A stretch of DNA of 10,037 nt, taken from the NCBI GenBank assembly GCA_964549305.1, contig CAZJVM010000082.1:1-10037 (forward strand), read 5' to 3'. This document shows positions 1 to 10,037 of the stretch, one piece after another; within the stretch, counting starts at the first letter, position 1; each line of letters starts with the position of its first letter. The stretch is from an uncultured bacterium. GTDB taxonomy: Bacteria; Schekmanbacteria; GWA2-38-11; J061. Under the pieces are notes generated by a model. That model did not search any database, was not told the DNA's origin, and saw only the letters and a program-made list of their open reading frames with translations. Made by a program: the position numbers and the translations under genes.

Positions 1-142
1 AGTCCTGACACCAAATGAGCGCGAAATTTCAACCTTGACAGTGCACCGGAAAGAATCAATAAAAGAGATGAGCAGAATTACGTGAAAAGATTTCAGATAC
101 TTTTTCTAAGCTTTTAATTTCTAACTGAAAGGGATTAACGCT

Positions 143-799
143 ATGACTGAAAATCAGGAATCATCGGGCAGGGAAGATTTTTTAAAGGAAGTTAGAAGAA
201 GAGTTGAGGAATCGAAGAATTGGCTGCAGGAAGTGACGATAACATCGGTAAACGGCGACTGCCCTTACGGACACAGGGAAGGGGAGATATACAAGGTAAA
301 CGATATCCGCACGGGCGGGCTTTGCGGCGCGTTGTACAGGGACATTCTCGATTCTGTGCTGATAACGCATTATGGTGGGAATCTTCCGTGGGAAAAGGAC
401 GATGGGAGTTTTAGCGGAATATGTTCTGAACAGGGTAAGGTGCAGGTAAATGTAAAAAAGGTTCATAAAGATAATCTAAGCACTTCAATCGTGAAACCCT
501 CCCTGAGGGATATGACAGGGAAGGGATTTTCTGCAATTGATAACTTCAGGATATTCGTCGAAATAGACAGCGTGGCAAATCAATGCAACTGGGGACACAG
601 GGCAGGGCAGAGAATAGAAATAGATCCTTTCAACTCGTGGAAGGTCTGCGCGAGACTTTTCGTTAATGCCTTCTACGCGATGAATGTGATTCTTTCGCAG
701 AAGAAACTCCACTGGCAATACGAGGATGACAGGGTGCAGATGACTTGTCCCGATACCTATAACATAACGACTTTTACGCTTGTGAGAGAGAAGAGATAA
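143..799 (+). CDS. Tandem two-domain TIGR04076-family-like protein (putative metal/Fe-S-binding, function unknown), 218 aa
   Basis: Two internal repeats: V(T/E)I.SV...C..GHR.G (CPYGHREGE / CNWGHRAGQ), then a mid-domain Cys (LCGALY / VCARLF), a Trp (LPW / LHW) and a C-terminal Cys (CSE / CPD). AAGGGA lies upstream of ATG143. Pattern recalled from TIGR04076 members. Confidence 0.75.
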   Translation: MTENQESSGREDFLKEVRRRVEESKNWLQEVTITSVNGDCPYGHREGEIYKVNDIRTGGLCGALYRDILDSVLITHYGGNLPWEKDDGSFSGICSEQGKVQVNVKKVHKDNLSTSIVKPSLRDMTGKGFSAIDNFRIFVEIDSVANQCNWGHRAGQRIEIDPFNSWKVCARLFVNAFYAMNVILSQKKLHWQYEDDRVQMTCPDTYNITTFTLVREKR

Positions 800-829
800 T
801 AGTTAGGGATTGAACGGAAAGTTTATACT

Positions 830-859
830 CCGGAGAACAACGGAATAATCTCCGGTTTT
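830..859 (+). terminator. Possible intrinsic terminator after the TIGR04076-like gene
   Basis: CCGGAGA (830-836) pairs perfectly with TCTCCGG (849-855), followed by TTTT (856-859). The 12-nt loop and short U-tract weaken the call. Confidence 0.4.
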
Positions 860-931
860 AACTATGGAATTTATTATGGTGTTGACGGTCCGGTCGATGC
901 CGGACAATGACAGCAGGGGAAAGGAGATAAT

Positions 932-1087
932 ATGAACAAGATAAAGAAACATTACAGAAAACCTGAATTGAAGCAGGTAAAATTAATTCCTGAAGAAGCC
1001 ATCCTTGGCACCTGCAAGAATGACCTCGGTTCAGGTCCGAACCAGAGCCAATGCCTGATTCCGCAGTGCTTTAATCAGGGGAGTTGA
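932..1087 (+). CDS. Putative RiPP precursor peptide, 51 aa: MNKIKKHYRKPELKQVKLIPEEAILGTCKNDLGSGPNQSQCLIPQCFNQGS
   Basis: Hand-translated; below the ORF-track cutoff. AAGGAG at 921-926, 5 nt before ATG932; TGA at 1085-1087. Basic N-terminus with YxxPxL (YRKPEL), then PEEAIL, then a Gly/Ser/Asn/Gln-rich core with Cys28, Cys41 and Cys46. Confidence 0.8.
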   Translation: MNKIKKHYRKPELKQVKLIPEEAILGTCKNDLGSGPNQSQCLIPQCFNQGS

Positions 1088-1138
1088 ATAAGGGTAATTT
1101 CATCATTTTTTTGCGAAAAATTCTAATATAAGACACAT

Positions 1139-2311
1139 TCAATAAATCCGCCACAAGTCGCTTTCTGCGTGGTTTCCGCAGTGTTTGTAGTCGTCAAATT
1201 CCAGATGCAGACCATAGGCAGTGTGTATGTCGTGAAACTCTTTTGAAAGACGAAGATAATATTCAAGGGGCGGTTGTTTCTGTTTGTGAAAAGCCGCACC
1301 TAAAGCGGGCTTAAACACGAAACTCATCATCGATATACCCCGTTTGGCAAGATATTCACATCCTTCAATATTTGACTTCAGAGCTTCATCAACAGTTTTA
1401 AATCCGTGCGGTTCAGCCATTTCGCAACCTGCAACGATATTCGTGCAAACGCTTCCTTCGCCGAACACCTCCAGCGCGTCAAACATACTGTTTATCCACA
1501 TGTCCTGTCCTACAAATTTTTCCTTGCCCGGGCAAATCCACTTGAATAAATCCTTGTCCCAAACTTCAAGGTCGGGGCAATAACGCATTACACCGGTTTC
1601 ATCGTGAAGGCGTTTAAGCTGTTTTTTCGAAAAGGCGCTGCAGGTAATGTGGCTTGGAAATTGTTTTTCGGAAAAATTCTCTCCTACTGCCTGAAGAACT
1701 TCTATGTAACGATTCACCTCGTAGTCAAAGGGTTCGTCTCCACGCGGGTCTGAACCGCCCGTTAGGATTAACATAGAAAATCGTCCCGGTTCTTTTAATA
1801 TTTCCGCTATTGTTTCTGAGATGTCCTGCGGGTCCAGATCCGCATTGTTGCCTAACTTTTTTTTCCGTTCATTGAAATAGAGCCCTGCAGAACAGAATTT
1901 ACACTGATTGCCTCCTTCAAAATAGTGGCAGTAATTATAAGACCATAAATTTATTGCTTGAGGTCTTACATTGGCAATCCCCGTCATAGGTGTGCCGCGA
2001 CTGGTTGTTTCGCTGTAAAAAAGAGGCGTTGGAGGAAATTCAATCTCCTCTACATATTCATCTTCATAGAATATTCCAAGCCCGCCGTTATGAAAATGTA
2101 TGGTGTAGTGGTCCGGCATTTGAGTCTTTCCGCCTACAACAACGGAAGTGCCGTCGCGAAGAAGCATTGGTCCGGGATTTCCGCCGTATTTCTTTGTAAC
2201 CTCATCTGAAAAAGCAACCCCCCTGCGGTACATATCCATTTTAAGAATGATAAAGCGGGGATAATCGGGATATTTATCAACTGCTTCAAAATATGTGAGG
2301 TCTTTTTCCAT
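1139..2311 (-). CDS. Radical SAM enzyme with non-canonical CX8CX2C motif, no SPASM/Twitch domain, 390 aa
   Basis: CHYFEGGNQCKFC (nt 1892-1930) keeps the aromatic-Cys ending typical of rSAM motifs. ILTGGSD is a GGE-like motif, followed by LEVWD..F..ICPGK and TNIVAG. AAGGAA RBS at 2322-2317. Motif spacing and PGK resemble, from memory, the MSMEG_0568/TIGR04043-like clade. Confidence 0.85.
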   Translation of the reverse strand: MEKDLTYFEAVDKYPDYPRFIILKMDMYRRGVAFSDEVTKKYGGNPGPMLLRDGTSVVVGGKTQMPDHYTIHFHNGGLGIFYEDEYVEEIEFPPTPLFYSETTSRGTPMTGIANVRPQAINLWSYNYCHYFEGGNQCKFCSAGLYFNERKKKLGNNADLDPQDISETIAEILKEPGRFSMLILTGGSDPRGDEPFDYEVNRYIEVLQAVGENFSEKQFPSHITCSAFSKKQLKRLHDETGVMRYCPDLEVWDKDLFKWICPGKEKFVGQDMWINSMFDALEVFGEGSVCTNIVAGCEMAEPHGFKTVDEALKSNIEGCEYLAKRGISMMSFVFKPALGAAFHKQKQPPLEYYLRLSKEFHDIHTAYGLHLEFDDYKHCGNHAESDLWRIY

Positions 2312-2500
2312 ATTGTTTCCTTTGATTATTGATTGGTTTTATAATGTTGAGTAAAATTATGGATAATGATTAACCAACAAATAGATAATAATCAACCGAT
2401 AAAGAGTTATTTATCTAAAAAAGTATGGATTTATTAACGTGAAAAAATAGGTGTTTTGAATGAATTGCACGCATAACGATAAAATATTCTGTCTCGAAAA

Positions 2501-3739
2501 TTAATCAAAAAATCCGGACAATTCTCTTTCGATATTTTTTATCCTTTTTTCCCTGTGGGGTATATCAAGCAATTTGTTTTTCAGTATATATTTTGATACT
2601 AAAAGTCCCGCCAGATAGTTTCCTTCCTTGTTCCAATGGTTGTCATATTTCCAGTAGAGTTCTTTTGTGCTGCCGGTTTTTTCTTTTGGATTTGTGTGTG
2701 AACTTTGTTTAAAGTCGGGCAGAAGGTCTATATAGTCAATGCCTTCCTCTTTAAAAAAGTCATGAAGGATTCTGTTTGGTTTTTCAGTGTCTATACTGCG
2801 GAGATTTTTATATCTTTCCCTATAGACCTGATATTTTGGCGGTATAATTACAATTAAAAGCTTTGATTTGTTTTTTTCTGCAAGTCTTCTGAATGCTCTG
2901 ATATTTTCATAATGAATTTCCCAGGCAATTTTTATCCAGTCATAATCATAGAAGTGAAGATTCGGATTATTCCATGTTGAAGGCGGTGGTCTGTTAAGAT
3001 AATAATAAAGCATGTCATAAATAATGGAATATTGTCTGAGAATGAATTTTGTTCTTTGTATCAGGGGATGGTCGGGATAAGTCTTTGTTCCGAATTTTTT
3101 CCATATCTGAAATTTATCGTTGAGGTTTTTTGTCACAGTAATTCTGCCTGTTGTTATATCAAAGGAACGGTCGAAAGTTTTAACTCCATTGACAACAGTT
3201 ATTTCAGGAAAGAGATAATCATCCTGTAAGTCATTTACATAGTAACCCACAATAATTATTTTCGGTGAATACAATATTCGGGCAATAATGTTCTGCGCCT
3301 TGTATAGTTCTGCTCTTGTACCGTAACCGGGGACTCCGCATTTTAAGACTCTGTATCTGAGAAGGTCTTCAACCTTTGTTCCCCATTTGTCTTCAAATTT
3401 TGCATAGGAATGGGTAAAACTGTCTCCAACGAGCAGTATATAGTCTTTTGTGTCTTTTGCGTCAGTATCGAAACATCCGATTTCATTTGACCAGACTTTA
3501 TAAGTGCCTTCTCTGTAGATATAGGCGTCTGAGGGTTTAAAATTTTCTCTGATATCAAAACCCTTTACAGGGTCCTTCTTGAAATAGTTTGTCGGGAAAG
3601 GGAAGTTGTATAATGTGCTTCGAAGTCTTTCCTGATTTAAAGTTGTAAATCTCAGGATACTCTCTGCAATAAACAGAGTTGCAATGATTGCGACAACTGA
3701 CAAGCTTAAATTAATTACAGTATTTTTTATCCGTTTCAT
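2501..3739 (-). CDS. Membrane-anchored SGNH/GDSL hydrolase (AlgX/AlgJ-like fold), 412 aa
   Basis: N-terminal hydrophobic helix followed by AESILR. SGNH blocks: I (LLVGDSFT), II (GVPGYG), III (GYYVND) and V (DNHWN, catalytic Asp/His). Confidence 0.85.
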   Translation of the reverse strand: MKRIKNTVINLSLSVVAIIATLFIAESILRFTTLNQERLRSTLYNFPFPTNYFKKDPVKGFDIRENFKPSDAYIYREGTYKVWSNEIGCFDTDAKDTKDYILLVGDSFTHSYAKFEDKWGTKVEDLLRYRVLKCGVPGYGTRAELYKAQNIIARILYSPKIIIVGYYVNDLQDDYLFPEITVVNGVKTFDRSFDITTGRITVTKNLNDKFQIWKKFGTKTYPDHPLIQRTKFILRQYSIIYDMLYYYLNRPPPSTWNNPNLHFYDYDWIKIAWEIHYENIRAFRRLAEKNKSKLLIVIIPPKYQVYRERYKNLRSIDTEKPNRILHDFFKEEGIDYIDLLPDFKQSSHTNPKEKTGSTKELYWKYDNHWNKEGNYLAGLLVSKYILKNKLLDIPHREKRIKNIERELSGFFD

Positions 3740-3834
3740 AATGGAATATTCTCCAGATTAGCTTAACTAATCCGAAATAAACTCCATTAAAGCATTAATT
3801 TCAAGAAGTATATTAATTACAGGTTACTTCCAAT

Positions 3835-4743
3835 TCAAAACTTGATCACAGGCGGAACATTTGCAAGCGACCACGCTTCAAAGGGGACAATCTTTTTTGC
3901 ATAGGGATCTGAAAAAAGCTGGTCCAAAAGCCATTCGCGACGCATAGTGTCCTGCGCTTCAATGTCTTTTTGTGTATAGGGCGAGTCCTTATGTTTTTCA
4001 ACCAACTCCATATATTTATCTGCAAAACTCACGAAAGTTTCCGAAACAAGGTCAAAGTTTTTTTCTGTTTCAAAAAAGAGGGGTCTCCCGTAAAAGCTCA
4101 CTCCCACGCAGGCAGGTTTGCGCCTCCATCTGCGGTCGATTTCCTTGGGGTCGCCCTTGCAGATTAGATTACGGTTGTAGTCAGGGCTTTTTTCGAATTT
4201 TTTGAATACGCTGTCCACGCTTTCTTTAAGGGAGTTTAGGTCTTCCTCGATTCTAGTGCCGGGCATAATGCCGAGCCATCCGCCTGTAAATGAAATTCCG
4301 CTGTCAAATACCTGTACGACTATAGTCGCGTGAAGCATTCCCACAAGGGGTGTCTTCGGGTGCGCGTCTATGGAATAGAATCGCCCCCAAAGAAGATTTC
4401 CGGGAAGCCTGCTGTTGGGAGCGGCTTTTTTCCCTACGGCGAGCATCCTTCCCATCTTTTCAATCACAGACCCCCGCGTTACTTTAATGTCATAATCGGA
4501 GTAGTCACTTAGAAATTTTTTTGTCTCCGATGACCTGTTTTCGTTAATTTTGTAAGCGCGTCCGAAGTATCTCTTGTCCATATCCTCCATAAACTTGAGC
4601 ATACGTTCTGTCAGTTGTTTCTGCTCAGGTGATAATGTTTTTACTGCTTCTTCATCTGCCGCATAGGAAGGGGAATGGAATGTAATGCCTGCGAATAAAA
4701 TTAAAAAAGGCAGGATAAGGATACACCAATAACGCGCTCTCAT
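3835..4743 (-). CDS. Secreted divergent coproporphyrinogen III oxidase (HemF)-fold protein, 302 aa
   Basis: Start moved to ATG4743 (GGAGGA at 4756-4751, 7-nt spacer). Sec-type signal peptide MRARYWCILILPFLILFAGITFHSPSYA. Co-linear HemF-like blocks: GSVIEKMG, SIDAHPKTPLVGMLH, FTGG, VGVSFY, SPYTQKDIEAQDTMRR, LFSD and C-terminal VPPVIKF. Confidence 0.7.
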   Translation of the reverse strand: MRARYWCILILPFLILFAGITFHSPSYAADEEAVKTLSPEQKQLTERMLKFMEDMDKRYFGRAYKINENRSSETKKFLSDYSDYDIKVTRGSVIEKMGRMLAVGKKAAPNSRLPGNLLWGRFYSIDAHPKTPLVGMLHATIVVQVFDSGISFTGGWLGIMPGTRIEEDLNSLKESVDSVFKKFEKSPDYNRNLICKGDPKEIDRRWRRKPACVGVSFYGRPLFFETEKNFDLVSETFVSFADKYMELVEKHKDSPYTQKDIEAQDTMRREWLLDQLFSDPYAKKIVPFEAWSLANVPPVIKF

Positions 4744-4808
4744 AATCAAATCCTCCGAAAGTAAAATTTGAAAATCAGAAAAACAAAAATATTCGCTATG
4801 CCGTTAGG

Positions 4809-5516
4809 TTATACAATCTTGGTTGAGCAGATTTCTCCCGGCGTAACTTTTATTTTTATTCCGCCTTCTTCTGCCTGACCGCTCAAGCGGGGTATGCAGA
4901 AGTTGTTGCAGACTTGCTCGATTTTAAGTTTTGTGCCGAGAAAAGCGTTATGTGCTATTCCGTCTCTGAAGGGGCATATTACGAGGCGCTCATTGGGACG
5001 CTTATAAATCTTTTCATAGAGTTGAAATGCGCAATCCGTTCCTTCAAACATGGCTGAAAGAATCTCATCTTTACTACCGCCTGTCTTCTCCACTTTCATT
5101 TTTATTCTCTTCATAAGCGGACTGAGAAATTCCTTGTCGAACTGAATGTATTTTTTAATCATTCCATTCTTGATGAGAAATTCGACATAGCTGAGATGGG
5201 CTTTTACGAGTGCATCATTAAACTTGTGTTTATAGCCATGGTCAATAGCATGGGTTTGTATCAAAGAATTGATTGCGTTTCCGAGCATATCAGTATCGTG
5301 AATCTGTCCGTATTTTACTGCCGGTACGGCATCTGCAGGCATTGGAGGCAACGGTTTCGACTGCATTGCCATATGCCTTGATGCAGGCGGTCGTCCTGCT
5401 TCCGCACTTCTTATATTTGGCGATGCTGCCGCAGCTAAAACGGCACCTCCCAGTGCTGCGCCTGAAGTCTTGAAAAAATCTCTCCTGTCGATGCCTTCTT
5501 TTTTTTCTTTCTTCAT
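4809..5516 (-). CDS. Tat-exported Cys-containing protein (C-terminal pattern reminiscent of ATC-hydrolase/V4R-like domains), 235 aa
   Basis: Start moved to ATG5516 (AAGGGGG, 9-nt spacer). DRRDFFK twin-arginine motif, Ala/Gly-rich h-region and AEA cleavage site, then a Pro-rich linker. Five Cys: DCAF, ICPF, VCNNFC and EIC. The Tat call is strong; the domain call is tentative. Confidence 0.8.
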   Translation of the reverse strand: MKKEKKEGIDRRDFFKTSGAALGGAVLAAAASPNIRSAEAGRPPASRHMAMQSKPLPPMPADAVPAVKYGQIHDTDMLGNAINSLIQTHAIDHGYKHKFNDALVKAHLSYVEFLIKNGMIKKYIQFDKEFLSPLMKRIKMKVEKTGGSKDEILSAMFEGTDCAFQLYEKIYKRPNERLVICPFRDGIAHNAFLGTKLKIEQVCNNFCIPRLSGQAEEGGIKIKVTPGEICSTKIV

Positions 5517-5603
5517 AAAATATTTCCCCCTTAGAGTTGAGTTGTTGGTCCCCTTTTTAAGCAAAGTAGTTCTGGCAGGATGATTCTAAAACATACGTAA
5601 ACG

Positions 5604-5630
5604 AATATAAAACTAAATTGGTCTTGTCAA
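5604..5630 (-). promoter_or_regulatory. Possible sigma70 promoter for the Tat/HemF-like genes
   Basis: TTGACA (5630-5625) and TATATT (5609-5604) with a suboptimal 15-nt spacer. Confidence 0.35.
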
Positions 5631-5631
5631 T

Positions 5632-5646
5632 CAAATCATTGATTTG
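5632..5646. promoter_or_regulatory. Palindromic operator-like site CAAATCA-T-TGATTTG
   Basis: Perfect 7-1-7 inverted repeat in the divergent intergenic region, next to the minus-strand TTGACA. Confidence 0.45.
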
Positions 5647-5893
5647 TTCAGTTATAATTAGGTTAACGTAAGATTAGCTTTATGGGGAAAAATATTTGTT
5701 TCCCTGCTTTTTCTTCATAATCAGGCATCTGCCGGAAAATCAGGAGCTCATTGTCAGGCAAGGGAATGACAGTGTGGCGGATCTCCCGAACAATTTGTGT
5801 GATGACGATTGTTGGTGTCGTAAAATGACGAGTTGCGGGAGCGCGGAGTTACGAAATCTGTCGGTTTTTACTACTTTTTCATTTAACATTCCC

Positions 5894-5923
5894 TTGACAA
5901 CAGACCTTTTAAATAAGTACTTT
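5894..5923 (+). promoter_or_regulatory. sigma70-type promoter of the formate dehydrogenase module
   Basis: TTGACA (5894-5899), 18-nt spacer, TACTTT (5918-5923). The predicted +1 falls at or near ATG5931. Confidence 0.55.
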
Positions 5924-5930
5924 TCCATTT

Positions 5931-6782
5931 ATGCCTGAAAGAAAAAACAAAACGCCCGTATCCCTCGACTATGTGCCCACAAATTGCAAAATAGGTTCGG
6001 TTTCCACACTAACACCATCGGAAAAACTCATTCGAATAGAGATGCCTGAAGGCAGAGAATTGGGGCACAAACCCGGACAGTTTGTGCAGGTTTCAATTCC
6101 CGGACTCACCGAAGCACCTATCTCAGTTGCAAGTTCGCCTACGCGCAGGGGATATTTTGAACTTGGAGTAAGAAACGCGGGCACTTTTACAAGCGCGCTT
6201 CACCGCCTCGGCGAAGGTGACGAAGTCGGAATCAGAGGACCTTTCGGAACATACTTTGATATTGAAGCGATGAAGGGAAAAGATCTTCTGCTTATTTCGG
6301 GCGGATGCGGACTTGCGCCTATGCGCTCACTAATTCAATACTGCGAGGATAATATCGAGCAATTTAAAAGCGTAAAGATTCTCTACGGAGCGAAAACACC
6401 ACTGCAAATGCTATTTAAGGGTGAACTTTCGCAATGGGAAAAATCCGGACACTTTTACTGCCAATATACTGTTGATGAGAATACCGGAAGAAACGGATAT
6501 AAGGGCAGGATAGGGCTTATTACGAAACTGATACCTCCACTTGAAATTGATAAAGATAACACAATTGCAGTGATAGTCGGTCCCCCTGTTATGTACAGGT
6601 TTGTAATTGCGGAGCTTAAGAAAAAGGGAATCACGGAAGAGAAGATTATAGTTTCACTTGAACGTTATATGCGATGCGGAGTAGGCAAATGCGGACACTG
6701 CGTAATTGAGCATAAATACTGCTGCATAGACGGTCCCGTGTTTTGGTTAAAGGATGTAGCGGGACTCAGAGGAGCATTATGA
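5931..6782 (+). CDS. FAD/NAD(P)H-binding [2Fe-2S] oxidoreductase subunit (AsrB / sulfhydrogenase gamma HydG / FlxA-like), 283 aa
   Basis: PGQFVQV, EAPISVAS, GTFTSAL, RGPFG, SGGCGLAPMRS, LYGAK, VGPPVMY and SLERYMRCGVGKCGHC...C..GPVF ([2Fe-2S]). Confidence 0.93.
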   Translation: MPERKNKTPVSLDYVPTNCKIGSVSTLTPSEKLIRIEMPEGRELGHKPGQFVQVSIPGLTEAPISVASSPTRRGYFELGVRNAGTFTSALHRLGEGDEVGIRGPFGTYFDIEAMKGKDLLLISGGCGLAPMRSLIQYCEDNIEQFKSVKILYGAKTPLQMLFKGELSQWEKSGHFYCQYTVDENTGRNGYKGRIGLITKLIPPLEIDKDNTIAVIVGPPVMYRFVIAELKKKGITEEKIIVSLERYMRCGVGKCGHCVIEHKYCCIDGPVFWLKDVAGLRGAL

Positions 6783-8842
6783 AAAGGACTTTAACGACCT
6801 GTCCCTACTGCGGAACAGGTTGCCGTTTTTATCTCATTAGCGATGATTCCGGAAAGGTTTGCGGTGTCGAAGCGTCCACTGAGCATCATACAAGCAGGGG
6901 GCAGTTGTGCATCAAAGGGTGGAATGCCTATGAATTCGTAAATCATCCCGACCGCCTTACCGTTCCTCTTATACGCAAGAATGGGAAACTCAAACCTTCA
7001 TCGTGGGATGAAGCGCTTGATACAGTTGCAAAACGCCTAAAAGAAATATCCGAAAAACACGGTTCCGATTCCCTGATGTTTTTCTCGTCGGCAAAGACTA
7101 CGAATGAGGAAAATTTCGCAATGATGAAGCTTGCAAGGGCAGTTTTCAGGACAAACAACATTGACCACTGCGCGCGCCTTTGCCACTCGTCAACGGTTAT
7201 GGGACTTGCGGCAAGTTTCGGCTCCGGCGCGATGACAAACTCAATCTCCTGTATGGAGAAAGCCCGAGGCATTCTTGTAATCGGCTCAAACACAACTGAA
7301 CAGCATCCTCTTATAGGAACGAGAATCATCAACAATACCGCGGACAACGGATGTAACCTCATTGTGGCAGACAGCAGGTCAATACGCCTTTCCCGTTTCG
7401 CGAAACTTCATCTTCGCCACAAAAACGGCACTGATGTGGCGCTTCTGAACGGGATGATGAATGTGATAATCGCCGAAGGGCTCGAGGATAAAAAATTTAT
7501 CAGTGAGCGAACGGAAGATTTTGGAAAACTTAAAAAAACCGTTGAAACATATACACCGCAATATGTAGCGCGGATTACCGGATTGCAGTCAGAGGAGATA
7601 ATCGAGGCGGCGCGCATCTTTGCCGCAAACAAACCCGCAATGATTGTCTATGCAATGGGAATCACCCAGCACACTCACGGAGTTGACAATGTAAAAAGCT
7701 GCGCAAACCTTGCGATGCTCACGGGAAATCTCGGTATTGAAGGCGCAGGAGTAAATCCCCTTCGCGGGCAAAACAATGTTCAGGGCGCCTGCGATATGGG
7801 GGCGCTTCCAAATGTTTACAGCGGATATCAGAAGATTACGGACAAAGAAACACGGGAAAAATTCGAAAAAGCGTGGGAAGTTTCGCCCCTTCCCGATAAA
7901 GCGGGACTTACGGCAACAACGGCAATTACCGCCGCGGCAGAAGGGAAACTTAAGGCGCTTTATGTAATGGGTGAAAACCCCATTCTCTCCGATGCAAACC
8001 AAAAACACGTGCGGGGCGCTTTTGATAACATAGAGTTTCTCGTTGTGCAGGATATTTTTCCCACTTCAACCACTGAGCTTGCCGATGTAGTGCTTCCTGC
8101 CTGTTGTTTCGCAGAGAAGGACGGCACATTTACATCCACTGAGCGCGGTGTGCAGCGAGTAAGAAAAGCGGCAAACCCTCCCGGTGAATGTATGGACGAC
8201 TGGAAAATATTCGGTGAGATAGCGGGGCGTCTCGGATACGCAGGTCTCGATTATGTTTTTCCCGATGAAATACTCTCAGAGATAAATTCCCTTACACCAA
8301 GCTATGGAGGAATTACGCCCGGGCGCGTTGAAAATGAGCTGCTGCAATGGCCCTGCTATGATGAGAATCATCGGGGGACTCCTGTGCTTCACGAAAAGAG
8401 CTTTGCAAGAGGAAAGGGAAAATTCCATTCCGTTGAATATAAGCCCTCTGCCGAACTTCCCGATGAGGATTGGCCCTTTATGCTTTCCACGGGACGCTGT
8501 TATTTTCATTTTCATACGGGCACTATGACAAGGCGCTCGAAACTTCTTGACCGCGAGGAGAGGTTTCCATATGTGGAAATTCATCCCGATGATGCAAAAT
8601 ATCTCAAGCTGAATGACAGGGAGTTTTGTGTTGTTTCAACGCGAAGAGGCGAAGTTGAGGCGATGGCGCGGGTTACAGATGATGTTTTAGCTGGAAATAT
8701 TTTTATGCCCTTCCATTTTTTGGAGGGCGCGGCGAATGTGCTTACAAACAACGCCCTTGACCCCGAGGCGAAAATTCCGGAGTTTAAGGTTTGCGCGGCA
8801 AATGTGAGAAAAAAAGAAAATGAAAGCGTTAACAACTGCTGA
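6779..8842 (+). CDS. fdhF: Cytoplasmic Mo/W-bis-PGD formate dehydrogenase alpha subunit, cysteine-type, 687 aa
   Basis: Start moved to ATG6779 (ATGA overlap with the upstream stop; GAGGAG RBS). CPYCGTGC...LCIKG [4Fe-4S]; active site NNIDHCARLCH; PLRGQNNVQGACDMG; AEKDGTFT; C-terminal HTGTMTRR...PFHF...IPEFKVCA. No signal peptide. Confidence 0.95.
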   Translation: MKRTLTTCPYCGTGCRFYLISDDSGKVCGVEASTEHHTSRGQLCIKGWNAYEFVNHPDRLTVPLIRKNGKLKPSSWDEALDTVAKRLKEISEKHGSDSLMFFSSAKTTNEENFAMMKLARAVFRTNNIDHCARLCHSSTVMGLAASFGSGAMTNSISCMEKARGILVIGSNTTEQHPLIGTRIINNTADNGCNLIVADSRSIRLSRFAKLHLRHKNGTDVALLNGMMNVIIAEGLEDKKFISERTEDFGKLKKTVETYTPQYVARITGLQSEEIIEAARIFAANKPAMIVYAMGITQHTHGVDNVKSCANLAMLTGNLGIEGAGVNPLRGQNNVQGACDMGALPNVYSGYQKITDKETREKFEKAWEVSPLPDKAGLTATTAITAAAEGKLKALYVMGENPILSDANQKHVRGAFDNIEFLVVQDIFPTSTTELADVVLPACCFAEKDGTFTSTERGVQRVRKAANPPGECMDDWKIFGEIAGRLGYAGLDYVFPDEILSEINSLTPSYGGITPGRVENELLQWPCYDENHRGTPVLHEKSFARGKGKFHSVEYKPSAELPDEDWPFMLSTGRCYFHFHTGTMTRRSKLLDREERFPYVEIHPDDAKYLKLNDREFCVVSTRRGEVEAMARVTDDVLAGNIFMPFHFLEGAANVLTNNALDPEAKIPEFKVCAANVRKKENESVNNC

Positions 8843-9800
8843 ATTGAAATCGTTTCTTGAGTCGCTGACAGGCGAGTATGATGTGCGCGTACCCGTGAAA
8901 CTTCAGGACGGGACAAGGGCGCTCGGTCATCCCGATGAAGGCGCTCTTTGTATTGTAGGCGGACGGATAGCGAGAAAGCCCACTGATATATTTTTTCCTC
9001 AGCTTGATGTGATGCTTATGGCGCGAAAGGGGGAATTCAGTTTTGCCGGGAATGAAGAGAAGCCTTTTTTTGTTCTTGGATTTACGGCAGAGGATTGTGA
9101 ATGCCTTGAGTTTATCGACAGGTTTTATTCCGCGAATTTTCGCGACGAGATTTATTTTGCAAGGCGCGATAGCACGGTTATTGCCGCAATCTCGGGAAAA
9201 TGTGGAAGGGAAGGCGGAATGATGAAGATTGCAGGGGAAAATTGCGATTTGGAGTTTATAGGCGATGGAGAAAGATATATTGTTTCTGCATACTCTGAGG
9301 TGGGGAAAAAGCTTGAGGCAATGATGAAGTGTGAAATCAATGATGCTTCAATTGATGAGCTTAAAAAACTTTCGGATTCAATACCTGATGATGACTTGAT
9401 TATAATGAAAAAAGCTTCTGAGCTGATTCGAAAAGACGCGGTCCCTGATGAATTCTGGAAAGAGATTGCAGACCGCTGTATCTCCTGTACTGCCTGCAAT
9501 ATTTCCTGTCCGACGTGCACCTGCTTTGATGTATGCGACCACGACCGCGATAAATCCATTGAACGAAGCCGTCTCTGGGATTCCTGTCAGCTTGACGGAT
9601 TTATGAGGGAGGCAAGCGGTCATAACCCCATGGGCGTGGAATCCCTTAGAACAAGAAGGCGAATTCATCATAAGCTTGCCGCGGATTATGAAAGATGGGG
9701 GCATATTACCTGTTTTTTGTGCGGACGATGTGATGATGTATGCCCGACTAATATCGGGATTAAATCTGTTAACCGCGAAATCGTCAAACGCTTTGGATAA
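8820..9800 (+). CDS. 2x[4Fe-4S] subunit (AsrA / sulfhydrogenase beta HydB / FlxC-D-like), 326 aa
   Basis: W..IADRCISCTACNISCPTCTCF, R.WDSC, GHNP, R.R.RI.HK and CFLCGRCDDVCPTNI. Overlaps the fdh 3' end by 23 nt. Confidence 0.92.
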   Translation: MKALTTAELKSFLESLTGEYDVRVPVKLQDGTRALGHPDEGALCIVGGRIARKPTDIFFPQLDVMLMARKGEFSFAGNEEKPFFVLGFTAEDCECLEFIDRFYSANFRDEIYFARRDSTVIAAISGKCGREGGMMKIAGENCDLEFIGDGERYIVSAYSEVGKKLEAMMKCEINDASIDELKKLSDSIPDDDLIIMKKASELIRKDAVPDEFWKEIADRCISCTACNISCPTCTCFDVCDHDRDKSIERSRLWDSCQLDGFMREASGHNPMGVESLRTRRRIHHKLAADYERWGHITCFLCGRCDDVCPTNIGIKSVNREIVKRFG

Positions 9801-9921
9801 TAGTAGAATACCTGAGACACGGCGACACGGAGAAATTGAGATGCAGGGATGGGCAGAAGAATTTTAAAGAAGACTTGCTGCTTAAAGTGACTTTTGTCAA
9901 AAAAGCATGGGGGTGAATAGT

Positions 9922-10037
9922 ATGAGAAAAATAATCAAAGTCTTTTCAGGATTAGTTTTCGTTTTGCTTGTTTTTTCAAACTTTTCATACGCAGAGGATT
10001 TAACGCTTCTTTCGACATTCGATACGCCGGGTGATGC
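9922..10037 (+). CDS. 5' fragment of a secreted protein, probably LVIVD-repeat beta-propeller type (runs off the window)
   Basis: GGGGGTG RBS, then MRKIIKVFSGLVFVLLVFSNFSYA|EDLTLLSTFDTPGD... with a Sec signal ending in SYA. 'LLSTFDTPG' resembles the LVIVD repeat turn motif. Absent from the ORF track because it is truncated. Confidence 0.65.
   Translation, partial: MRKIIKVFSGLVFVLLVFSNFSYAEDLTLLSTFDTPGD

Follow-up and report, generated by a model that had tools for sequence, protein, structure and literature searches.

A probable RiPP precursor gene in a Schekmanbacteria genome represents a widespread, undescribed peptide family with a putative modification operon elsewhere in the genome

A small gene in a 10,037-nucleotide stretch of DNA from an uncultured bacterium (GTDB lineage Bacteria; Schekmanbacteria; GWA2-38-11; J061; GenBank assembly GCA_964549305.1, contig CAZJVM010000082.1, positions 1 to 10,037 of the forward strand; the whole stretch is called the window below) most likely encodes the starting peptide of a RiPP, a peptide made by the ribosome and modified after translation. 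We predict that it belongs to a widespread, undescribed family and that its modifying enzymes are encoded elsewhere in the same genome. The whole reading, a genuine RiPP precursor of a large unnamed family with operon-type enzymes acting on it in trans in this order, has in our estimate a probability of roughly three in four. The source genome (G000; 2.94 Mb in 169 contigs, of which the window is contig C82) was compared with the other genomes of its order (G001-G004) and with genomes outside the order, including G026.

The peptide gene and its superfamily

The gene lies at 932-1087 on the + strand, with an ATG at 932, 51 codons and a TGA stop codon at 1085-1087, and its translated product is MNKIKKHYRKPELKQVKLIPEEAILGTCKNDLGSGPNQSQCLIPQCFNQGS. 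A ribosome-binding site, AGGAG, was read from the sequence at 922-926 (+ strand), 5 nt 5′ of the ATG; other copies of the gene have GGAG or GGGG at an equal distance from the start. The sequence-only reading that singled out this open reading frame (ORF) had given its span as 921-1087. The 51-amino-acid ORF stands, but position 921 belongs to the ribosome-binding site and not to the coding sequence. Its description was otherwise accurate: the AGGAG site, a Y-x-x-P-x-L leader motif and a three-cysteine core ending in GS are all present. The motif (Y8-R-K-P11-E-L13, 953-970), whose Y8 and P11 are invariant across relatives, is predicted to be bound by a RiPP recognition element (RRE), and the cysteines are residues 28, 41 and 46 (C-x12-C-x4-C). 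The predicted leader (M1-G26, 932-1009) ends in EEAILG, and its limits follow the conserved stretch from Tyr to Gly and a putative cleavage after G26. The predicted core (T27-S51, 1010-1084), recognized from residue conservation, contains C28-K29, G35-P36, C41, C46 and G50-S51. No signal sequence was found in the peptide, it shares no family in Pfam or NCBIfam, and Rfam gave 0 matches at E <= 1 over the whole window. A promoter and terminator scan returned consensus-level sites only, which are not used as evidence.

The 51-codon ORF is a real gene. The source genome contains four copies, on C82 (the window), C51, C87 and C7, with 100%, 78%, 75% and 60% identity to the window peptide. A profile of close relatives has matches in 5 of 41 genomes, and these are all five genomes of the window's order (2-10 matches each); none of the 36 genomes outside the order was matched. 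When the differences between pairs of 18 in-register copies are summed, the first, second and third codon positions total 1456, 1242 and 3874, so third positions are about three times more variable than first or second ones, which indicates purifying selection on the encoded protein. All 17 candidate relatives in a collection of 5.8 billion proteins passed E <= 0.01, all of them unnamed and without Pfam domains, and the nearest one from another sample reaches a full-length identity of 92%. The expectation that gene callers would miss this gene holds only in part: relatives are called as genes in public data, so callers do not always miss the family, while the window's exact 51-aa sequence was not among the matches listed from the 5.8-billion-protein collection. 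A 47-aa protein in a public collection (P0016) matches the window peptide over its first 37 residues and then diverges (window ~1040-1087). The divergence resembles a one-base frameshift and may stem from an error in assembly or from variation between strains.

The peptide belongs to a superfamily that is large, phylogenetically broad and without a Pfam or NCBIfam model. Searched with a profile, 1.84 billion representative proteins yielded 757 matches at E <= 1e-3. A scan of 185,579 species-representative genomes, seeded with a 14-sequence alignment, found at least 598 sites matching the stretch EEAVLGxCK, and at least 567 loci were confirmed by tblastn. Judged by record title, the confirmed loci are mostly from Acidobacteriota and Polyangia, and some are in metagenome-assembled genomes labelled Nitrospirae, Syntrophorhabdales and Dormiibacterota. 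Fifty diverse members have no Pfam or NCBIfam model in common; there are isolated weak matches in one to three members only (DUF5972 in 3/50, 0.032; the lasso PadeA family in 1/50, 0.73). In the ESM Atlas, the three best of 30 matches are unnamed clusters of the type "hypothetical protein".

The superfamily consensus is Y-x-K-P-x-L-x2-V-x-L-x-P-E-E-A-V-L-G-x-C-K-x5-G-P-x4-C-x4-6-C-x3-G-S-COOH. Neither Y8 nor P11 varies among 21 close and 50 distant relatives. In the distant relatives C28, K29 and C41 are also invariant, G35 and C46 are at least 90% conserved, and L18, E22, A23, V24 and L25 are near-invariant. Statistics on peptides and their genomic context come from 80 loci fetched of the 567 or more, with the peptide recognised in 77. 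The stretch from Tyr to the Gly before x-C-K is 19 aa long in all 77 peptides, the last residue is Ser in 76, and 68 end in GS. A conserved leader and a variable core had been predicted from the sequence, and across the superfamily the mean pairwise identity is indeed 68% for the leader versus 45% for 40 cores of 26 aa. The contrast does not extend to the window's lineage (five genomes), where conservation of the core matches that of the leader (74% vs 67%).

The modification operon and the proposed pathway

In most organisms the peptide gene sits in an operon with the order PqqD-type RRE, radical SAM/SPASM enzyme, precursor, HprK-like kinase and archaeal-type (SipW-like) signal peptidase. We clustered the ORFs of the 80 loci, named cluster representatives by Pfam and NCBIfam, and counted recurrent neighbours with custom profiles. 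A radical SAM protein of ~420 aa (PF04055), which aligns to SPASM-type maturases, and a P-loop protein of ~320 aa matching HprK-related kinase B each occur at 61/80 loci. Signal peptidase I of the archaeal/SipW type (NCBIfam) is present at 55 loci, PqqD (PF05402, 2e-14) at 37 and a nucleotidyltransferase-like protein (PF14907, Pfam) at 14; MsbA-like ABC exporters are also among the neighbours. The radical SAM gene is 5′ of the peptide gene on the same strand at 58 of the 77 loci with a recognised peptide, the kinase gene is 3′ at 55, and both hold at 45. The gap from the peptide stop to the kinase start has a median of 7 bp, and this tight flanking places the peptide gene inside a maturation operon. 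The claim that the ORF is a true precursor of an uncharacterised RiPP family is thus supported by the homologs, by the constraint on codons and by the RRE and maturase genes near them.

C25 peptidases are encoded at 41/80 loci, as very large PorU-like proteins with DUF11, CARDB and Laminin_G_3 domains. Giant proteins of ~2300-2450 aa lie directly 3′ of the peptide operon (L048 8851-16122; similar in 32/80 loci); those of the L048 type carry a signal-peptidase-I-like domain at the N-terminus and a PorU-like C25 peptidase at the C-terminus, along with CARDB, an AgmC-like region and DUF11 repeats.

The source genome encodes an operon of this type on contig C28, on the minus strand. It includes genes for PqqD (11652-11951; PF05402, 5.7e-16), a radical SAM/SPASM-type enzyme (10548-11648; PF04055, 1.1e-24), an HprK-like kinase (9648-10523; GTSGAGKST motif and fold search), a SipW-like signal peptidase (9167-9670; TIGR02228, 59.9 bits vs a cut-off of 51.85, with a GGSMHP serine box) and a PF14907 protein (7929-9161; Pfam), and two ABC exporters are encoded alongside on the + strand (4367-6130 and 6175-7905). 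Custom profiles of the superfamily operon match the C28 genes at 7e-144 (radical SAM), 1e-90 (kinase), 1e-32 (PqqD) and 5e-38 (peptidase). Orthologous operons are present in G001, G002 and G003, with kinase identities of 72%, 39% and 62%, respectively. No precursor was found on the 20 kb of C28 or within ~3.8 kb of the operons of G001, G002 and G003. The C28 operon is intact but precursor-free, and the precursors are scattered and multiplied to 2-10 matches per genome of the order. Only one of the 36 genomes outside the order, G026, has good matches to both the kinase and the radical SAM enzyme, and there a distant precursor (…YAKPTV…GCK…C…C…SGS) lies exactly between these two genes. The precursor-free operon on C28 and the precursor within the operon of G026 are the reasons that we read the window peptide as matured in trans.

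The C28 radical SAM enzyme has the CX3CX2C motif (C40-x3-C44-x2-C47) and eight further cysteines (247-348), including a SPASM-type C-x2-C-x5-C-x2-C; the SPASM-type spacing was read by eye (C262, C280, C317, C320, C326, C329, C348), and Pfam listed no SPASM domain. The closest solved structures in the PDB are SkfB (3.3e-17), a thioether-forming enzyme whose match indicates a distant relationship only, and 5wgg (1.1e-7), which we take to be CteB, a sactionine-forming enzyme. A model of the C28 kinase (predicted local distance difference test score, pLDDT, 94.2) matches in fold the phosphoenolpyruvate carboxykinase structures and the HPr kinase/phosphatase 1knx; searching PDB sequences with the kinase yielded no meaningful match.

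In the pathway that we propose, the PqqD protein would bind Y8-x-x-P11-x-L13, the radical SAM/SPASM enzyme would cross-link the three cysteines, most likely as thioethers, and the kinase would phosphorylate or polyphosphorylate a serine, most likely the C-terminal Ser51. The PF14907 protein may then decorate the phosphorylated serine further. The signal-peptidase-like enzyme would cut off the leader after G26, and the ABC pumps would export the 25-residue product. The three conserved cysteines are the candidate sulfur donors for such Cys S-to-carbon bridges. Val or Ile at -3 and Gly at -1 are compatible with a type I signal peptidase site; we propose cleavage after G26 on account of these residues, the SipW-like peptidase in the operon and the precedent of LppS. 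LppS is the leader peptidase of the linear polyphosphorylated peptide (LPP) pathway and is of the signal-peptidase type (PMC13381572). Ser51 (codon at 1082-1084) is the candidate phosphorylation site because Ser is the last residue in nearly all of the peptides, because the kinase gene adjoins the peptide gene in relatives, and because lasso precursors are phosphorylated at their conserved C-terminal Ser by kinases of the PadeK type (PMC9266682).

Secreted-protein neighbours and alternative readings

Many copies in this order follow a same-strand gene that encodes a secreted protein, and those proteins share a C-terminal domain of ~110 aa with a Lys-rich tail (pattern …PTAITLSSF…W.T.TEIDN.GFNI.RSE…Y.KLEDID…). 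Their N-terminal parts vary and include an S8 subtilase, thrombospondin-type repeats and others without a Pfam family. Proteins with the shared domain are encoded at L035 (G000:C51), 4193-6205, and at L022-L033 (G002-G004). The domain has no fitting Pfam or NCBIfam family, only a weak RGI_lyase match at 6e-4, and it has the look of a sorting signal. It is matched in four proteins of G000, 3 of G001, 25 of G002, six of G003 and two of G004. When coordinates were compared, 12 of 23 strong peptide matches were 17-260 bp 3′ of a domain gene (G000 1/4, G002 8/10, G003 2/3, G004 1/4); the window copy does not belong to these 12. Two copies of G004 are at contig ends, where their position relative to domain genes is not judgeable, and for one copy of G001 inspection by eye shows a comparable Lys-rich gene end upstream. 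Behind the C51 copy come a gene for a PEP-CTERM protein and, next, one for a 952-aa PorU-like C25 peptidase, an arrangement that echoes the C25 peptidase link of the superfamily loci.

Several points weigh against the reading as an RiPP precursor matured in trans. Neither the window nor the surroundings of any of the four copies contain a gene for a maturase, RRE or kinase, so that we infer maturation in trans from co-occurrence only. G004 (70% complete) has peptide copies, and no kinase or radical SAM ortholog was found in it. The C28 radical SAM enzyme is below every curated NCBIfam cut-off. The near-invariant core and the secreted-protein neighbours suggest that the peptides of this lineage may have a role different from that of their operon-linked relatives. 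The predicted complex between the PqqD protein and the peptide gives weak support: it scored 0.49, against 0.02 for the best of three controls, with at least 96% of contacts in agreement between runs and a partner pLDDT of at least 53. The mark for such scores was met by 58/80 solved complexes and 2/110 mismatched pairs, and at scores of 0.60 or below by only 7 of the 80 solved complexes and by both of the passing mismatches. RRE-leader complexes have already been solved structurally, so a passing score may reflect likeness to these rather than binding.

The same neighbourhoods allow readings in which the peptide acts with secreted proteins. The matured peptide may be part of a system for sorting or processing cell-surface proteins and not an antibiotic-like product. 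This is suggested by the PorU-like (sortase-like) C25 peptidases beside the operon across phyla, by the copies of this order behind secreted-protein genes and by the C51 copy two genes from a C25 peptidase; we regard it as improbable. The cross-linked, phosphorylated and possibly glycosylated peptide could then be an acceptor or anchor, with its new N-terminus or the invariant Lys29 as the nucleophile, or it could be required as a cofactor or regulator for removal of the C-terminal domain by the C25 enzyme. Alternatively, the scattered copies may encode small Cys-rich peptides that stay unmodified, or bear disulfides or metal only, and act with the co-transcribed secreted proteins as an inhibitor, chaperone or secretion helper. 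The 12 copies closely 3′ of secreted-protein genes on the same strand, the strong conservation of the core in this lineage and the separation of the copies from the operon would fit. However, the scattered copies keep Y8, P11, the EEAVLG stretch, the three cysteines and the C-terminal Ser (near-)invariant, which would not be expected had modification been abandoned, the operon is kept without its own precursor in G000-G003 and would otherwise have no substrate, and the window peptide lacks a signal sequence. We likewise give this explanation a low probability.

Two further explanations concern the window copy itself, and we consider both very unlikely. The first is local maturation by a variant radical SAM protein of 390 aa (1139-2311, minus strand; NF045502, 209 bits vs a cut-off of 125), which is convergent with the peptide gene and ends 52 bp from its stop codon, perhaps together with a protein with two TIGR04076 domains encoded 5′ of the peptide gene (143-799, + strand). 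The C87 copy is ~2.6 kb from another NF045502 paralog, so that two of the four copies are near one of the six NF045502 matches of the genome; but C82 and C87 share an upstream repeat, and the two adjacencies may not be independent. Moreover, no peptide copy adjoins the close NF045502 orthologs in G001 (C72, C32) and G002 (C12:204192, C12:217783), a search at E <= 1e-20 found no ortholog in G003 and G004, although both carry the peptide, no PqqD gene is near the window peptide, and none of the recurrent neighbour clusters of the 80 superfamily loci is of the NF045502 or TIGR04076 type. We rejected the two genes as the peptide's maturation system; adjacency of peptide and NF045502 gene is seen only in G000 (two of the four copies). 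In the other explanation the window copy is a silent, intact-looking by-product of a dispersed repeat or a duplication. A dispersed hairpin repeat is directly 5′ of the gene, a 14-codon remnant on C49 has the same element upstream, and P0016 is a frameshift-like variant of the window peptide. Against this, the reading frame, ribosome-binding site and all conserved residues of the window copy are intact, codon statistics show constraint across the family, and the relative with 92% identity over the full length comes from another sample.

The repeat in the window (888-913, + strand) is a hairpin, GTCCGG-TCGATG-CCGGAC, followed by AATGACAG, and is located just 5′ of the ribosome-binding site. Its general form is a GC-rich hairpin (xTCCGG-loop-CCGGAx) and then (A/G)ATGACA(A/G), sometimes followed by tandem units of ~22 nt containing GATGACAA. 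The hairpin-plus-ATGACA element occurs 17 times among 4360 TGACA[GA] sites in the source genome, often at contig ends, and it is 5′ of the C82 and C87 copies and of the C49 remnant. The contigs of G000 that bear the repeat, apart from the window, are C8, C11, C24, C31, C32, C49, C64, C79, C87, C125, C146 and C154, and similar units are 5′ of peptide copies in G002. The remnant is a truncated fifth copy in the last ~120 bases of C49, on the minus strand; its 14-codon ORF (MDKQKNEHTYILNN) stops early and is preceded by the same hairpin and a stretch like a ribosome-binding site. The ends of C24 and C87 share a sequence of ~60 bases that reaches into the start of the C87 peptide copy, and the two contigs are probably joined there. 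A gene for a sigma-54-dependent activator (L036, G000:C87, 7738-9096) is convergent on the C87 copy.

The source genome has 11 TIGR04076 matches. Genes of the TIGR04076 and NF045502 types are close together at two or more places (the window and C8:28245-30389 of G000), and one TIGR04076 match on C8 is ~1.3 kb from another variant radical SAM match; the two may work together in a function that does not involve the peptide. The window also encodes, at 5931-9800, an operon for an AsrB-like FAD/NAD-binding protein, a formate dehydrogenase alpha subunit (TIGR01591, 847 bits) and an AsrA/ShyB-like 4Fe-4S protein, which is ordinary anaerobe energy metabolism.

Comparison with known systems

The closest known system is the LPP pathway (Popov et al., Nat Commun 2026, PMC13381572), to which a radical SAM enzyme is added here. 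That pathway (LppK, LppB, LppS, LppN and LppD) is the experimental precedent, and on sequence we rate the RiPP described here as LPP-like, with a radical SAM/SPASM step in addition and a precursor family that is new. Counterparts of all five core genes are on C28 (HprK-like kinase, discrete RRE, signal-peptidase-I-like peptidase, nucleotidyltransferase and MsbA-like exporter), and the five-gene set is also found in relatives, for example at loci L045 and L042. Both precursors have a YxxPx[L/V/I] leader motif, and [Y/W]xxPx[L/V/I/F/A] is bound by discrete lasso and LPP RREs (PMC13381572). The differences lie first in the radical SAM/SPASM gene, present here at 61/80 loci and on C28, whereas "radical" and "SPASM" have 0 occurrences in PMC13381572. 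In that paper the LPP product is linear, phosphorylation is primary, and no enzyme cross-links the core. The LPP leader consensus, YxxPxVLxHQxIxFETxxS, is not that of our peptides, in which YxxPx[LIV] is followed by xxVxLxPEEAVLGxCK. Unlike LPPs, this family has three near-invariant cysteines and a near-invariant C-terminal Ser, often with PorU-like C25 peptidases nearby. Its loci come from Acidobacteriota, Polyangia, Nitrospirae-type and further lineages, whereas the authors of that paper describe LPPs as restricted to Bacillota.

The sequence-only reading had framed the peptide in terms of sactipeptides and ranthipeptides. Like the systems for the SkfB, CteB and PapB products, this one has an RRE and a radical SAM/SPASM enzyme, its core bears Cys and its leader is of the YxKPxL type; among solved structures SkfB and 5wgg come nearest, and the PapB, StsB and AlbA models align to the C28 enzyme. 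However, the best NCBIfam scores of that enzyme against the characterised thioether families (PapB, StsB, AlbA, SkfB) are 75-93 bits vs cut-offs of 340-850 (PapB 81 vs 340). We know of no kinase, signal peptidase or PF14907 gene in thioether RiPP families. The RRE and radical SAM/SPASM part of that framing stands, but the additional kinase, archaeal-type signal peptidase and PF14907 transferase make this a relative of the LPP pathway and not simply a sactipeptide or ranthipeptide system.

Computationally defined groupings of NCBIfam/TIGRFAMs (SynChlorMet, HPr-rel-A and GeoRSP) similarly pair an HprK-like protein with a PqqD relative and a radical SAM/SPASM enzyme. The C28 proteins match the SynChlorMet models weakly, with scores far below the cut-offs (ScmE 96 vs 400, ScmD 29 vs 100 and ScmC 23 vs 125), and none of 50 peptides matches a shared NCBIfam model. 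Prochlorosin-type systems have many unlinked precursors, one maturase and hypervariable cores. Several precursor genes far from a single maturase locus are found here too, but the copies share a near-identical core (the 74% identity given above). Phosphorylated lasso peptides of the paeninodin and pseudomycoidin type (PMC9266682) resemble the system in their HprK-like kinase, nucleotidyltransferase homolog and strictly conserved C-terminal Ser, and the transferase homolog PsmN adds hexoses there; no lasso cyclase or B2 peptidase is among the recurrent neighbour clusters of our loci.

In open-licence literature (PubMed Central, bioRxiv), neither the peptide family nor an RiPP operon with radical SAM, HprK and signal-peptidase genes was found described; the supplement of PMC13381572, which is outside this comparison, may list related signal-peptidase clusters. 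In the same literature "linear polyphosphorylated peptide" occurs only in PMC13381572, and "SynChlorMet" and "HprK-related kinase" are absent.

If the reading as an RiPP precursor matured in trans is true, it would define a broad RiPP family with at least 567 loci that has no Pfam or NCBIfam model and is undescribed in the open-licence literature. It would join radical SAM/SPASM cross-linking to the LPP-type kinase, signal-peptidase and transferase machinery that was shown experimentally in 2026, and would extend that machinery well beyond Bacillota. It would also supply a substrate for an orphan radical SAM subfamily and predict a new type of product, cross-linked at its cysteines and phosphorylated at its C-terminus. 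The precursor-free operon, the near-identical precursors behind secreted-protein genes and the recurrent C25 peptidases hint that this product may have a role at the cell surface.

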